Source: Oscillospiraceae bacterium
GTDB lineage: Bacteria; Bacillota; Clostridia; Oscillospirales; JAVBQB01
Direction of reading: 5' to 3'
DNA length: 64,000 nucleotides
NCBI GenBank assembly: GCA_031549265.1
Contig: JAVBQB010000001.1
Location: forward strand, 20,027 to 84,026
The position numbers and the translations under genes are program-made. This document shows, piece by piece, positions 3,321 to 26,752 of this stretch. Positions within the stretch are counted from its first letter, which is position 1. Every line of letters begins with the position of its first letter. The notes under the pieces were generated by a model. It saw only the letters and a list, made by a program, of their open reading frames with translations, searched no databases and was not told the DNA's origin.

Positions 3321-3419
3321 ATGTTTGTGTATGAAAAAAAGCTGCAGTATCCTATCAAGATCAAAAACCCCAATCCCCGACTAGCCAAATACATAATCAC
3401 CCAGTACGGAGGACCGGAT
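3321..3419 (+). CDS. cotJC: cotJC fragment 1 of 3 (codons 1-33), interrupted; unrearranged frame stops at 3431
   Basis: RBS AAGGAGG; MFVYEKKLQYPIKIKNPNPRLAKYIITQYGGPD matches the CotJC N-terminus; immediately after cotJB. Confidence 0.92.
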
Positions 3420-3485
3420 TCCTTTAGGTAATGCTGGATATCTGGCGTCCATTGTCGCGGGGAATTAAAAGACATGCCGAGGATT

Positions 3486-4934
3486 CTACTGTTTCAGCTC
3501 GACTTGGAGCGTTTGTTCCTGTTTGTTAAAGACGATCCGCCTGATCAGGAAATGCGCCGTTTTATATTTCAGGCCTATATCGGTATCGGCGTCATTTAGC
3601 AAGTGGAAAACACTATCATAGCTTAAAAATCGGTAGACGCTGTCTGAGTTTTTTATTGGCGATTGGTCAAAGCGCCGCAGTTGCCCGGCTGCCTTTTGTC
3701 TATCGGATTCCAGCTTTATCTTGTTTAGTTTGTACTCGTCCAGAGTATCCGCTCCGTTAACGTACGCTTCGTAAATTCTGGATTCTTTTACTTTAAGCTT
3801 TTCCAATTGACCTCGGAGCAGCTCGCGCTCGTCCTGAGCGGTCTTGTCAGCTTCCTGGGGAACGATGCGCAATTCAATTCTCTCGTCAGGAAAAGAGTCT
3901 CTGATCGCTTCCGATACCAGCGCTTCCATTCTCGCGATCGATATCAATTGGCTTGCCTTGCACTTTCCCTTTGAATACCCGTTACACTGCAAATACGACG
4001 ACTGAGAGACAACGAGGGACTTGCCGCAATTGCCGCAGACGGCCAATCCGGTAAGCCATGTTTTGATTATTGTTGTTGACCTCTGCCGGTATCCATAAAG
4101 CTCTTTGGTCTGCAGAATCATATCCTGCGCCTTGTTCCACAGCTCAATGTCAATCAGCGGCTCGTGGTCAGAGTCTGTTACAATTGAATCCGGATGGCTG
4201 AAATTCCGTCTTGCTTTGCCTGTCGGCGTCCATCGGGCTTTGCCTATGTAGACCGGATTATTCAAAATGTAATCGATCGTTCTGTTTTCAAATGGCGATC
4301 CTCTTTTAGATTTTACACCCAAGTCGTTCATATGGCAAGCAAGTTGCCGCATGTTCATTTCCTGATTTGCGTACTTCTCAAAAATATATTTAACGAATAT
4401 GGCTTCTTCTTGAACAACTTCGAGTTTGCCGTTCGCAATTACATATCCAAATGGAGCGCACGTCTGGTATTCTCCCCTGTTGGCTTTTTCAGTCATCCCT
4501 TTCTTAACTTCATCTGCGAGATTTAATGAGTAGTATTCTGCCATTGCTTCGAGCATGGCTTCAAGAATAACGGAAAACTTATCGCTTTCGATGGTTTCAG
4601 TAATCGAAAGAACCTTGACGTCGGCTTGCTTTTTGAGCAGAGATTTGTATACGACGCTGTCTTCTCTTGATCTCGCAAACCGGTCGAATTTATGTACGAG
4701 AATAATGTCAAACGGTTTAGGTTTTAACTTCGCAGCCGCGATCATTTTCATAAACGCCGGACGCGTCTCCGCCCTTTTTCCCGAGATGCCCTCGTCGACA
4801 TAGACGTGTTGATCCGATAAATAAATATCATTCTTTTTTGCATACTCTTTTAGTGCCTTGAGCTGCGCGTCAGGCGAAAATTCGGTTTGATCGTCAGTTG
4901 ATACCCTGATATAACAAGCGCCGTTTTGCCTCAC
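3486..4934 (-). CDS. Large serine recombinase (SpoIVCA/CisA-like) of element 1
   Basis: YIRVST catalytic motif, DRFARS, recombinase domain, CGNCG...C...C zinc ribbon, coiled coil; probable GTG start at 4934 after AGGAAAGG (ORF track extends to 5003). Confidence 0.93.
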   Translation of the reverse strand: MRQNGACYIRVSTDDQTEFSPDAQLKALKEYAKKNDIYLSDQHVYVDEGISGKRAETRPAFMKMIAAAKLKPKPFDIILVHKFDRFARSREDSVVYKSLLKKQADVKVLSITETIESDKFSVILEAMLEAMAEYYSLNLADEVKKGMTEKANRGEYQTCAPFGYVIANGKLEVVQEEAIFVKYIFEKYANQEMNMRQLACHMNDLGVKSKRGSPFENRTIDYILNNPVYIGKARWTPTGKARRNFSHPDSIVTDSDHEPLIDIELWNKAQDMILQTKELYGYRQRSTTIIKTWLTGLAVCGNCGKSLVVSQSSYLQCNGYSKGKCKASQLISIARMEALVSEAIRDSFPDERIELRIVPQEADKTAQDERELLRGQLEKLKVKESRIYEAYVNGADTLDEYKLNKIKLESDRQKAAGQLRRFDQSPIKNSDSVYRFLSYDSVFHLLNDADTDIGLKYKTAHFLIRRIVFNKQEQTLQVELKQ

Positions 4935-5109
4935 ACAAACACGACCTTTCCTAAATTGCCGCAATTCAAACTGCGTTGAATTATCTGAATTCGTTTTTAA
5001 CAATTTATTATGTCGGCGCTTGTCCTATTACTGAGCATATGAATAATTTGACGCAAAAGCTTGCAGCGTTTCGGCAGCTAAATTAGATAGTAATCCGATA
5101 CAAATTAAC

Positions 5110-5154
5110 GCGGACATGCCCGATGGCTTATATTCAAGCCGTCAGCATGTCCGC
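5110..5154 (-). terminator. Stem-loop between permease and recombinase
   Basis: GCGGACATGC...GCATGTCCGC inverted repeat. Confidence 0.55.
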
Positions 5155-5198
5155 AATTCGTGCTGCTAAAAAGTTTTTATCAAACGATCAGTTTCTGA

Positions 5199-24432: not shown

Positions 24433-24494
24433 AATGAAATCAGTTTAGCCCCTGTTCATGCCAGAGCAATGTCCCTAACCCGAGACTTCAGCTT

Positions 24495-24692
24495 TTACGA
24501 ATTTCTTCTCCCGTGCTGAGCATTGTTGTCGTCTTGCTCATGCGTTCTATCGCGGAAGGTTTCGGCTGATGCGGATTGTCCATCCATAACACTTGCGTCA
24601 TCAAAACAACGCAGCACAAACCGCACGGTTGTCATGCCGATTTTATACTCATACACTTTTGAGTTGCCCGTGATCTCCCCTGACATAGTCAT
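24495..24692 (-). CDS. Small hypothetical protein (about 63-65 aa) divergent from recombinase 2
   Basis: RBS GGAGGG before ATG ACT ATG; MSGEITGNSKVYEYKIGMTTVRFVLRCFDD... Confidence 0.45.
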   Translation of the reverse strand: MTMSGEITGNSKVYEYKIGMTTVRFVLRCFDDASVMDGQSASAETFRDRTHEQDDNNAQHGRRNS

Positions 24693-24752
24693 CACCCTCC
24701 AGTAATACAATTTATTCAAGATGTTCCGCTGGGATGTTATTTGGAGGTCGGA

Positions 24753-26366
24753 ATGTATTGTATGTATTTGCGCAAATCCAGGGCGGATCTGGAGAACGAG
24801 GCGCGGGGTGAAATCGAGACTCTCGCGAGGCACGAGCGGACGCTGCATTCGGTCGCTGATTCAATGGGAATCACAGTGCAGGCTGTTTACCGCGAAGTAG
24901 TTTCCGGGGAGACCATTGCTTCAAGGCCGGTTGTCCGCAAGCTGCTGGACGAAGTTAGTCAGGAAATCTGGGAAGGCGTTCTCGTCGTGGAGATCGAACG
25001 TCTGGCGCGCGGCGACACAATCGATCAGGGAGTTGTGGCGCGTACTTTTAAGCTGAGCGGCACCAGAATCATCACACCACAGAAGACATTTGACCCGTTC
25101 AACGAGTTTGACGAGGAGTATTTTGAATTCGGACTATTCATGTCGCGCAGGGAGTATAAGATGATTAACCGCAGGCTCCAGCGCGGACGAATTGCGTCGG
25201 TGATCGAGGGCAAGTATGTCGCCAATGTTGCGCCATTGGGATATGCGCGTAAAAAGCTTGAAGGGCAAAAAGGATATTCATTGATGCCCGTTCCCGAGGA
25301 AGCCGACGCGGTGCGCACTATTTTTGCGCTGTTCGCGGGGAATAACACAGATAAGAGCTACGCTGACCGCGACATGAGTATTCCGCAAATTGTCGATACG
25401 CTCAATGCAACCGCCATGAGACCGCGTAACGGCGGCAAATGGACAGTATCCACGGTGCGAACTGTTCTCGCCAATCCGGTATACATCGGGAAAATTCGCT
25501 GGAATACGAGGCCACAAAAAAAGGTGCTGACATCCGGTGAGATAAAGATCACACGTCCGCGAAATTCTGAAAAAGACTGGATTATCACAGAAGGAAAGCA
25601 TGAAGCGATAATCGACAGCAGTCTTTTTGCAACGGCTCAGGACAAACTGCGGAAAAAACAAAGAGCTGTGCGCCGTGATTTCGAACTAAAGAACCCGCTC
25701 GCCGGCTTGATATTCTGCGCTCTCTGCGGAGCAAAGCTGACACGGAGACCCCATCCGGACAACAAGCCGGATACACTCATGTGCGCTTCAAAAGGCTGCC
25801 GTTGCGTCAGCACACGGCTTGAACTAGTCGAGCAAAGGCTGCTCTCGGCAATTACTATGCTGGATGACGACCGTATATTAATAATCGCGGACGTACGTAG
25901 CCAAGAAGCGATTTCAAAGAACATAGTTAAACCTGACAGCCGCAAAACATTAAAAAAAGAACGGGACGCGATACTCGCGCAGTTGGAATCAGCTCATGAT
26001 CTACTCGAAAAAGGCGTCTATTCTGTAGAAACATTCACTGTGCGAGGAAGTGACCTGAATAGAAGGTTGGAGCTCATAAATGCTGCGCTGCAAGAGGATG
26101 GGCATACAGATCAAACGTTAGATATTCGAGCGAATGGAAAAGATGCTATGTCTTTCCGTCAATTTGTGGATATATACATGCGTCTCGAAAAATGCGGGAT
26201 GAAAAATGAGCTCTTAAAAACGGTAATTGAAAAAATCGAGTACGCTAAGACGGTTAACGGGCGGTGGCATGACAGTCCGGACAATTTCGAAGTGACTGTG
26301 TATTTGCGAGAGGAGCGTATCAGTGACAAAAACGAGGCGCGAACGAATTGGGACACTTTGAAATGA
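24753..26366 (+). CDS. Large serine recombinase of element 2
   Basis: YLRKSR catalytic motif, ERLARGD, recombinase domain, CALCG...C...C zinc ribbon; ATG at 24753 after GGAGG; the ORF crosses the right att site. Confidence 0.93.
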   Translation: MYCMYLRKSRADLENEARGEIETLARHERTLHSVADSMGITVQAVYREVVSGETIASRPVVRKLLDEVSQEIWEGVLVVEIERLARGDTIDQGVVARTFKLSGTRIITPQKTFDPFNEFDEEYFEFGLFMSRREYKMINRRLQRGRIASVIEGKYVANVAPLGYARKKLEGQKGYSLMPVPEEADAVRTIFALFAGNNTDKSYADRDMSIPQIVDTLNATAMRPRNGGKWTVSTVRTVLANPVYIGKIRWNTRPQKKVLTSGEIKITRPRNSEKDWIITEGKHEAIIDSSLFATAQDKLRKKQRAVRRDFELKNPLAGLIFCALCGAKLTRRPHPDNKPDTLMCASKGCRCVSTRLELVEQRLLSAITMLDDDRILIIADVRSQEAISKNIVKPDSRKTLKKERDAILAQLESAHDLLEKGVYSVETFTVRGSDLNRRLELINAALQEDGHTDQTLDIRANGKDAMSFRQFVDIYMRLEKCGMKNELLKTVIEKIEYAKTVNGRWHDSPDNFEVTVYLREERISDKNEARTNWDTLK

Positions 26367-26752
26367 TCGGTACCCTCGTCCATCAGCTGACCAGAAATAT
26401 GAGTGAGGAAGAAATCAAGAAGAGCGGTTACGGCGAATATTTTATCGACCACACCGCCGGCATCTATACGACTGCCGCCAGCGGAGCGCCGTGGACCGGG
26501 GCATATATCGGGGTAAAGGGCGACGTAATAACTGATCTTGTCGAAGATATGGCGGCGGAGCAGAAAGCCCGCACAACATATGACAACATCCTCCGCATGT
26601 CCGATGATCCAGATGTTTCGGACGTCATAAAGTTCCTGCGCGAACGTGAAATAGTGCACTTTCAAAGGTTCGGTGAGGGTCTGCGCCTGACGCAGGAGCG
26701 GCTCAACTCCAAAAACTTCTATGCGATGAATCCGGCGTTCGATAAGAACTAA
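26345..26752 (+). CDS. cotJC: cotJC fragment 3 of 3 (codons 65-199)
   Basis: ELGHFEMIGTLVHQLT...DLVEDMAAEQKARTTY...FLREREIVHFQRFGE is the CotJC C-terminal portion; no RBS of its own. Confidence 0.93.
   Translation, partial: ELGHFEMIGTLVHQLTRNMSEEEIKKSGYGEYFIDHTAGIYTTAASGAPWTGAYIGVKGDVITDLVEDMAAEQKARTTYDNILRMSDDPDVSDVIKFLREREIVHFQRFGEGLRLTQERLNSKNFYAMNPAFDKN

Follow-up and report, generated by a model that had tools for sequence, protein, structure and literature searches.

What does a bacterium gain, or lose, when two site-specific recombinases have cut one of its spore-coat genes into three? The question is raised by cotJC in a stretch of 64,000 nucleotides (hereafter the window) from the genome of an Oscillospiraceae bacterium (GenBank assembly GCA_031549265.1, contig JAVBQB010000001.1, positions 20,027 to 84,026 of the forward strand). 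Here the cotJC reading frame lies in three pieces separated by two intervals, called interval 1 and interval 2, and each interval carries a gene for a large serine recombinase (LSR), called LSR1 and LSR2. With moderate confidence we hold that the germ line keeps cotJC in three pieces, and that two independent and orthogonal site-specific deletions rebuild the gene, likely in the mother cell. The genome in question, G000 in our numbering, comprises 1.49 Mb on 4 contigs and is 84% complete.

We find that the three pieces fit together as parts of one gene. Joined in silico, by script, they give 92 + 102 + 406 = 600 nt and a frame of 199 amino acids (aa) whose sole stop is the terminal one, just as a first-pass annotation of this DNA had claimed. 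That annotation had also described a native ribosome-binding site (RBS) after cotJA-cotJB and a terminator after the last piece. Both are present; the fused cotJA-cotJB open reading frame (ORF) ends 2 nt before the cotJC ATG at 3321, the RBS AAGGAGG precedes this ATG, and a hairpin with a T-run adjoins the third piece (Table 1). Every piece is matched separately by the Pfam profile of the manganese catalases (Mn_catalase, PF05067), the matches run in order, and together they cover profile positions 1-197. Alignment of the rebuilt protein to CotJC, a check that the annotation itself had proposed, shows it to be collinear from end to end with the intact protein: 153 of 198 residues (77%) are identical to CotJC of genome G031 and 144 of 199 to that of G001, gaps occur at the C-terminus only and at neither junction, and 12-13 of the 15 residues around each junction are identical. 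An intact CotJC relative aligns to the manganese catalases 6j42 and 1jku, the EE..H.EM stretch included, and E65 and H68 of CotJC are presumably metal ligands. Is there a second, intact copy that would make the broken one superfluous? A whole-genome family search found no other cotJC or Mn_catalase gene in the 1.49-Mb, 84%-complete genome. As to the upstream partner, a cotJA-cotJB query gives a single matching stretch in G007 and G031 and two separate stretches in G010 and G001.

The ends of the two intervals look like the products of recombinase action. Pfam domains and positions bear out the earlier claim that each interval has its own LSR near one end. Between the 3' end of the LSR1 gene and the left junction of interval 1 there are 74 nt, and LSR1 and LSR2 are 27% identical to each other. 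When each was aligned with four orthologues, the catalytic serine motif of LSR1, the catalytic Ser13 of LSR2 and the zinc-ribbon cysteines of both proved invariant. The ends of interval 1 share an 8-bp core, those of interval 2 share GAAT only (7584-7587 and 26345-26348). Rebuilt from its two half-sites, attP2 is a quasi-palindrome in which 17 of 25 arm positions pair, against a 99th percentile of 15 in a null of 2,000 random window positions; in attP1, the weaker of the two, 13 of 25 arm positions pair, at about the 95th percentile of the null. In orthologous elements of the LSR2 type the recombinase-side arm carries CACTGATAA (G225, G107 and G267) and the far arm carries TTATCAGTGA (G225 and G107). 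The arms of interval 2 hold diverged versions of both motifs at matching distances, and because of this agreement we take bases 7586-7610 to be a true P' half-site. Directly after it, at 7611, comes the stop codon of a penicillin-binding protein (PBP) gene. Element-derived DNA thus appears to have been kept exactly to the half-site and no further, as selection for continued excision would leave it.

Both cut sites recur in related genomes, a comparison that the first pass had suggested, and with matching LSR clades. In a tree of 118 LSRs the six that serve codon 31, namely LSR1 and those of five other genomes or loci (G010, G107, G267, G043 and locus L090), form one clade with support 100; their identity to LSR1, measured in G010, G107, G267 and G043, is 41-44%. 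The complete genome G010, which belongs to another family of the order, has its cotJC cut at the identical place, between Q-Y-G-G and P-D-G-E with the core GGACC, by a 3.2-kb element in the opposite orientation, whose LSR shares 43.5% identity with LSR1 along the full length. For codon 65, one genome per species was scanned with an alignment of five LSR2-type proteins as query, and at least 584 relatives were found in these species-representative genomes. Loci were taken for the best 80 of these (43-51% identical), among whose record titles are Oscillospiraceae, Caproiciproducens, Clostridium methylpentosum, Ruminococcus, Tissierella, Lachnospiraceae, Christensenellaceae and Thermoanaerobacterales. 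A cotJC piece broken at residues 55-72 lies at most 700 nt after the LSR in 62 of the best 80 loci, as a same-strand 3' piece in 36 and as an opposite-strand 5' or middle piece in 26. The other 18 have no cotJC piece beside the LSR; 2 of them have a piece elsewhere in the locus and 5 have less than 200 nt of sequence after the LSR gene. Of the 85 rows in the LSR2 clade of the tree, 65 lie next to a cotJC piece with its break at residues 55-72, and for other LSR clades the crossover is a few bases off, within codons 62-66. Insertions in both orientations are seen at both cotJC sites. Judged from sequence, both breaks are genuine LSR attachment junctions at repeatedly used sites, served by the same LSR clades, and the LSR2 family is dedicated to codon 65 of cotJC.

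Relatives of LSR2 are also found in phages. The integrase of Paenibacillus phage phiIBB_Pl23 (NC_021865, L146) is 43% identical to LSR2 and that of a 46-kb faecal phage contig (MT835739, L147) 44%. Both genes are followed by a palindromic attP-like site, with cores that read the cotJC codons G-T-E-E and E-L-A-H (codons 62-68), which suggests that the two phages integrate into host cotJC; a literature search on the phiIBB_P123 integrase found no paper that states it. Given that phages carry LSR2-type integrases with cotJC-like cores, it follows that the LSR2 unit descends from temperate phages that use codon 65 as attB. More distant is the integrase of Clostridium perfringens phage PhiS63, which is 36% identical to LSR2 and targets sigK (PMC3442830). 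A metagenome scan with LSR2 for close relatives returned one distant match only.

How common are such interruptions, and are the pieces still under selection? An intact CotJC query matched 324 of the 401 genomes of the order. We searched 87 genomes again, 82 chosen for several matches together with a weak best E-value and the other five (G014, G016, G019, G037 and G039) for partial or extra cotJC fragments, so that the set is enriched for splits; the tallies are a hand reading of the match tables. Within this set cotJC is in pieces in 80 genomes, and the remainder comprise 3 with an intact gene plus an extra fragment, 1 with paralogues only and 3 that are unclear. The breaks cluster near residues 31, 62-66, 133-138 and 176-181. 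A double split, which the first pass had thought unusual, turns out to be nothing of the sort within this order, since 22 of the 87 genomes have two or more breaks and the pair of sites 31 and 65 occurs in seven others besides the window (G107, G267, G291, G063, G232, G324 and L090); in G107, G267 and L090 both sites are served by the identical two LSR clades. All 26 of the split 3' pieces that were extracted are free of stops over codons 67-194. The median ratio of nonsynonymous to synonymous divergence (dN/dS) is 0.20 among split-split pairs (n=5) and 0.19 among intact-intact pairs (n=15), with one split-split pair at dS 0.39 and dN 0; only pairs with dS < 1.5 were kept, most being saturated, and the window sequence is in no pair. 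By this measure split pieces elsewhere are under purifying selection like intact genes, and it is chiefly for this reason that we consider cotJC to be rebuilt and used. In the complete genome G267 (C1:1975614-2041039, L052-L055) cotJC pieces 1-32, 20-64 and 62-197 are spread over ~65 kb. The middle piece has a right boundary of the codon-62 type with a third LSR adjoining, and the boundary of the 3' piece is of the LSR2 type, at codon 65. The G267 gene may hold three elements, or one of its junctions may have decayed.

What lies between the pieces? The first pass had read both intervals as recombinase elements. For interval 1 this stands: its interior is foreign, with a GC content of 0.40-0.48 against 0.54-0.55 in the flanks, and contains LSR1, an amino-acid permease, an AT-rich stretch and, at the right end, a 43-aa ORF with a strong RBS. 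For interval 2 it does not, as ~13.7 of its 18.8 kb consist of single-copy housekeeping genes with the GC content of the host, 0.50-0.565 over 8-21 kb and flank-like apart from one 1-kb bin of 0.457 (13-14 kb). For YebC and mini-RNase III, carA, carB, dapF and guaA, the genome has one gene copy each. A Pfam scan of 18 large ORFs found no phage structural or lysis gene (capsid, tail, terminase). We therefore describe the second interval as what it looks to be, a stretch of chromosome that lies between attL and attR and carries a recombinase module on one side. The corresponding intervals of eight other genomes (G225, G236, G107, G267, G312, G189, G043 and G098; G107 in part) hold accessory genes only, and no strong housekeeping orthologues were found in them. 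Because interval 2 holds the only copies of core genes, it could be excised safely only in a cell that never divides again, and by the same token it cannot be lost from the germ line.

Table 1. Features of the split cotJC locus, in window coordinates (strand left empty where none applies).
Feature	Coordinates	Strand	Remarks
Fused cotJA-cotJB ORF, 153 aa	2857..3318	+	Pfam CotJA E 1.8e-11, CotJB E 2.6e-26
cotJC piece 1	3321..3412	+	Codons 1-30 and 2 nt of codon 31; PF05067 profile 1-33
8-bp core GGAGGACC, both ends of interval 1	left 3408..3415, right 7479-7486		G010 has core GGACC at this site
Interval 1	3413..7483		4,071 bp; small non-phage LSR element
LSR1, 505 aa	3486..5003	-	Pfam Resolvase + Recombinase + Zn_ribbon_recom
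Amino-acid permease	5199..6662	-	Cargo of interval 1; Pfam AA_permease_2, E 9e-38
43-aa ORF, RBS GAGGTGAGG	7288..7419	+	Right end of interval 1; candidate LSR1 directionality factor
cotJC piece 2	7484..7585	+	Last nt of codon 31, codons 32-64 and 2 nt of codon 65; PF05067 profile 20-68
Interval 2	7586..26346		18,761 bp, between attL2 and attR2
P' half-site of attL2	7586..7610		Diverged copy of LSR2-family P' motif TTATCAGTGA at matching distance
Housekeeping block	7611..21339		PBP transpeptidase, FHA-FtsW/RodA, YebC, YitT, mini-RNase III, carA, carB, dapF, aminotransferase, guaA (Pfam)
228-aa ORF and hybrid histidine kinase	21445..24369	+	228-aa ORF without family (GC 0.39); kinase with many paralogues in genome
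Terminator hairpin after hybrid histidine kinase	24383-24432
65-aa ORF, RBS GGAGGGTG	24495..24692	-	Divergent from LSR2; candidate directionality factor
LSR2, 541 aa	24741..26366	+	Pfam Resolvase + Recombinase + Zn_ribbon_recom; 3' end overlaps right junction
P half-site of attR2	26320..26346		Pairs with P' arm 7586-7610; diverged family motif CACTGATAA
cotJC piece 3	26347..26752	+	Last nt of codon 65 to stop; PF05067 profile 63-197
Intrinsic terminator hairpin after cotJC	26753..26791	+	18-nt arms, 100% complementary, then T-run

How, then, would the gene be put together? In codon 31, recombination by LSR1 between attL1 and attR1, with GGAGGACC as the core, would release a circle of 4.07 kb; in codon 65, recombination by LSR2 between attL2 and attR2, with GAAT as the core, would release one of 18.76 kb. 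Both deletions would be required before the cotJA/B-cotJC operon could make full-length CotJC. Interval 2 descends from a phage-type LSR2 element that uses codon 65 as attB, its interior now being mainly host housekeeping genes. The genome encodes SpoIVA and Spo0A, and this gene content marks a spore-former. If skin, SPbeta and gin are a guide, excision would take place in the terminal mother cell; it is from this likeness that we infer its mother-cell specificity, and the occurrence, timing and cell type of excision are inferred together with the identity of the directionality factors. Excision by an LSR needs such a factor, as has been established for GirC and GirX (PMC5595907), and each of the two reactions would have its own, the candidates being the 43-aa ORF (7288-7419) and the 65-aa ORF (24495-24692).

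What is known of these two small ORFs comes from their relatives and their positions. The 43-aa ORF has a single relative, 54% identical over 33 aa, which is encoded immediately upstream of the G028 cotJC piece 24-197. Beside LSR2-type genes, at most 700 nt upstream of them, a family of 47-68-aa proteins was found at 24 of 85 loci by jackhmmer started from the ORF of a relative. The 65-aa ORF of the window occupies the equivalent position; against the profile of this family it scores E 0.88, yet it ranks top among the 27,633 six-frame frames of the genome, and its N-terminal half alone aligns. It is absent from the jackhmmer family search at E <= 1e-3, and phmmer with the 65-aa ORF as query found only the ORF itself. 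Compared with other LSR neighbourhoods, the small ORFs of the window have no significant relative except antisense shadows. Pfam gives no match for either candidate and PHROGs none for the 65-aa family. Upstream of the small ORFs and the LSR genes, inspection by eye yielded no defensible candidate for a promoter of the sigma-E or sigma-K type.

A question remains, is the gene simply dead? It may be argued that LSR insertions inactivated a dispensable coat gene, that there is no developmental excision and that no CotJC is made, in which case interval 1 is perhaps still an ordinary mobile element and interval 2 a frozen relic with a decayed partner protein. We regard such a loss as unlikely, and several observations that weigh against a rebuilt cotJC deserve to be set out beside it. 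No CotJC match was found in 77 of the 401 genomes; the gene is thus dispensable in part of the order, and therefore an inactivated copy could be tolerated. Decayed pieces do occur elsewhere. The first pass had held that inactivating mutations in the fragments of relatives would speak against excision, and on this point the record is divided: the extracted 3' pieces are open, but a piece in G035 covering 47-156 has 3 stops, and pieces in G354, G359 and G186 have stops as well. At the left junction in G267 the LSR2-type P' motif is missing. For G000 itself selection after the split is unmeasurable, as dS is saturated and the nearest relatives stand at ~70% protein identity. Both directionality-factor assignments are guesses, and the 65-aa ORF beside LSR2 is without the C-terminal motif of its family, as a decayed partner would be. 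Relatives give no clue to how a 14-kb housekeeping block entered interval 2, since gene order after cotJC differs among them: in G001 and G010 large distances or contig ends separate guaA, the FHA-FtsW gene, cotJC and the 561-aa gene from downstream of it, and G007 and G031 agree in the genes before cotJA/B but not in those after cotJC. Finally, an LSR element that splits spoVAD, described below, weakens the link from a split sporulation gene to mother-cell excision.

Of these points the genomes that lack CotJC, the decayed pieces and the incomplete 65-aa ORF favour a dead gene, as do the essential-looking single-copy genes of interval 2, from which it may be argued that excision was never tolerated in growing cells. 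Against it, all three pieces are open and the rebuilt protein aligns with its intact orthologue at the identity given above with no indel; the two LSR genes are intact, as are the four half-sites; in comparisons across genomes the constraint on split pieces equals that on intact genes; and the P' half-site is kept right to the neighbouring host stop codon, as selection for excision would retain it. It is on this balance that we prefer a cotJC that is rebuilt by two deletions.

Excision might also occur with no mother-cell programme behind it. Sporulation genes, silent during growth, would then serve as safe landing sites, and excision could be stochastic or take place in the whole sporangium, with possible re-integration after germination. 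In model species spoVAD is expressed in the forespore, and it is LSR-split at one identical profile position in G000, G014 and G060 (3 of the 111 genomes with a match); insertion into a sporulation gene alone is therefore no proof of mother-cell-only excision. That true phages carry LSR2-type integrases with cotJC-like attP cores, and that insertions in both orientations occur at both sites, agrees with landing sites of this kind. Such an account nevertheless strikes us as improbable. The only copies of guaA, carAB and dapF lie in interval 2 and would be lost from any dividing cell, and in skin, SPbeta and gin excision is reported to be restricted by a sporulation-controlled directionality factor (PMC5595907, PMC5025042, PMC5499854). 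A misassembly, in which a draft or metagenome-derived genome was joined wrongly to give the three-piece layout, we consider very improbable indeed. The assembly is, it is true, incomplete and in 4 contigs, and interval 2 brings together gene blocks that stand apart in relatives. But the joins are free of repeats, and none long enough to cause a misassembly was found in window positions 1-30000; the joins fall exactly at attachment sites whose half-sites match orthologous elements of independent genomes; and the two-site layout is found again in L090, on a single contig of G107 and in G267, a genome complete in one contig.

A broader proposal can be put forward, tentatively, as possible: that in Clostridia cotJC is a multi-site landing pad and that in the window this has been combined with a developmental deletion fixed by the host. 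The pad would comprise at least four recurrent break points, near codons 31, 62-66, 133-138 and 176-181; no fewer than two dedicated LSR clades would serve it, one at codon 31 and one at codon 65, and further LSR groupings the other points. Expression of one coat gene would then depend on one, two or three separate deletions of DNA. Here the LSR2 unit would have been reduced to a recombinase, a small partner ORF and two half-sites that bracket 14 kb of single-copy core genes. The mother cell would cut guaA, carAB, dapF and the PBP/FtsW pair from its chromosome each time a coat is completed, and since germ-line loss of interval 2 would be lethal, an addiction-like lock would have made a mobile element a permanent part of development.

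How does this arrangement compare with known systems? It shares with the skin, SPbeta and gin class a frame that precise deletion would restore, a recombinase beside one end, and a shared core with an imperfect inverted-repeat attP. As with skin and its recombinase SpoIVCA in sigK of Bacillus subtilis and Clostridioides difficile, a sporulation gene is interrupted and excision would restore the frame. Unlike skin, the target is cotJC, there are two breaks and two unrelated LSRs, the nearest sigK-targeting relative that we have seen being the PhiS63 integrase, and interval 2 holds housekeeping genes where skin holds prophage remnants. The contents of skin elements are reported to vary, the recombinase alone being shared (bioRxiv 10.1101/2022.02.25.481979). 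The gin element in gerE of Bacillus cereus is likewise non-phage, uses an LSR with a 6.5-kDa partner (GirC and GirX) to rebuild a sporulation gene, and has a short common core in the middle of an inverted repeat (PMC5595907); it differs in the gene and in the LSR clades, and here there are two units in one gene and the partner ORFs are candidates. SPbeta in spsM also pairs an LSR with a small directionality factor (SprA and SprB), and its mother-cell excision rebuilds a spore-envelope gene (PMC4191935, PMC5499854); SPbeta is an active phage, whereas no phage structural gene is among the ORFs scanned here. Closest in target is a skin-like element of Laceyella sacchari, which is mentioned in one sentence as lying in cotJC (bioRxiv 10.1101/2022.02.25.481979). 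It concerns one species, of the class Bacilli, and one element, and the accessible portion of the preprint describes no recurrent sites, dedicated LSR clades, multiple breaks or host genes in the interval. Several elements in the same genes, removed in a terminally differentiated cell, are known from heterocystous cyanobacteria: in Calothrix sp. NIES-4101 nifBHDK is in 13 parts (PMC11249958), with seven excision and two inversion events (10.1101/2023.12.11.571196). Phylum, cell type and gene set are different there.

A literature search that left supplements aside found no account of recurrent cotJC sites or of cotJC-dedicated LSR clades, nor of multiple breaks in a Firmicute sporulation gene or of an excisable interval filled with core genes; neither catalase nor cotJ appears in the main text of a survey of LSR targets (PMC10083194). 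Programmed deletion as a means of rebuilding sporulation genes has so far been known from a handful of genes in a few model species. To these can be added a coat gene that is a frequent multi-site target across many gut and environmental Clostridia, with LSR lineages as site-dedicated as SpoIVCA is for sigK and with double or triple interruptions common. The excised interval, it would seem, can be host chromosome instead of a parasite. What results is a natural set of LSRs, presumably orthogonal, each with attachment sites close to those of the next within a single gene, and a testable case of a mobile element fixed by the capture of essential genes. For annotation there is a warning, in that a clostridial cotJC, spoIIID or spoVAD labelled a "pseudogene" may in fact function. 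Among the cultured carriers of the LSR2-type split are Clostridium methylpentosum DSM 5476, Caproiciproducens galactitolivorans BS-1 and YR-4, Anaeromonas frigoriresistens D2Q-11, Bianquea renquensis NSJ-32 and Tissierella sp. P1, which makes the prediction of excision testable at the bench.

The genome encodes nine LSRs, and some of them lie beside other split sporulation genes. spoIIID (PF12116), a mother-cell regulator gene, is split into a piece matching profile positions 2-55 (C4:670429-670590) and one matching 35-81 (C4:664128-664268; L145); the 3' piece is abutted by an LSR (C4:664261-665832), and the element measures ~6.2 kb. spoVAD (PF07451) is split within C1:226341-236360 (right part of L141) into pieces matching profile positions 3-205 and 202-328, ~9 kb apart. 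Its 3' piece is abutted by an LSR (C1:234227-235909) with a DUF6870 ORF upstream, and spoVAC/E follow. On C2 two LSR genes with frames of 554 aa and 457 aa stand in tandem (C2:7658-10626; L143), and a third LSR (C2:2951-4714) lies at the same end of the contig.

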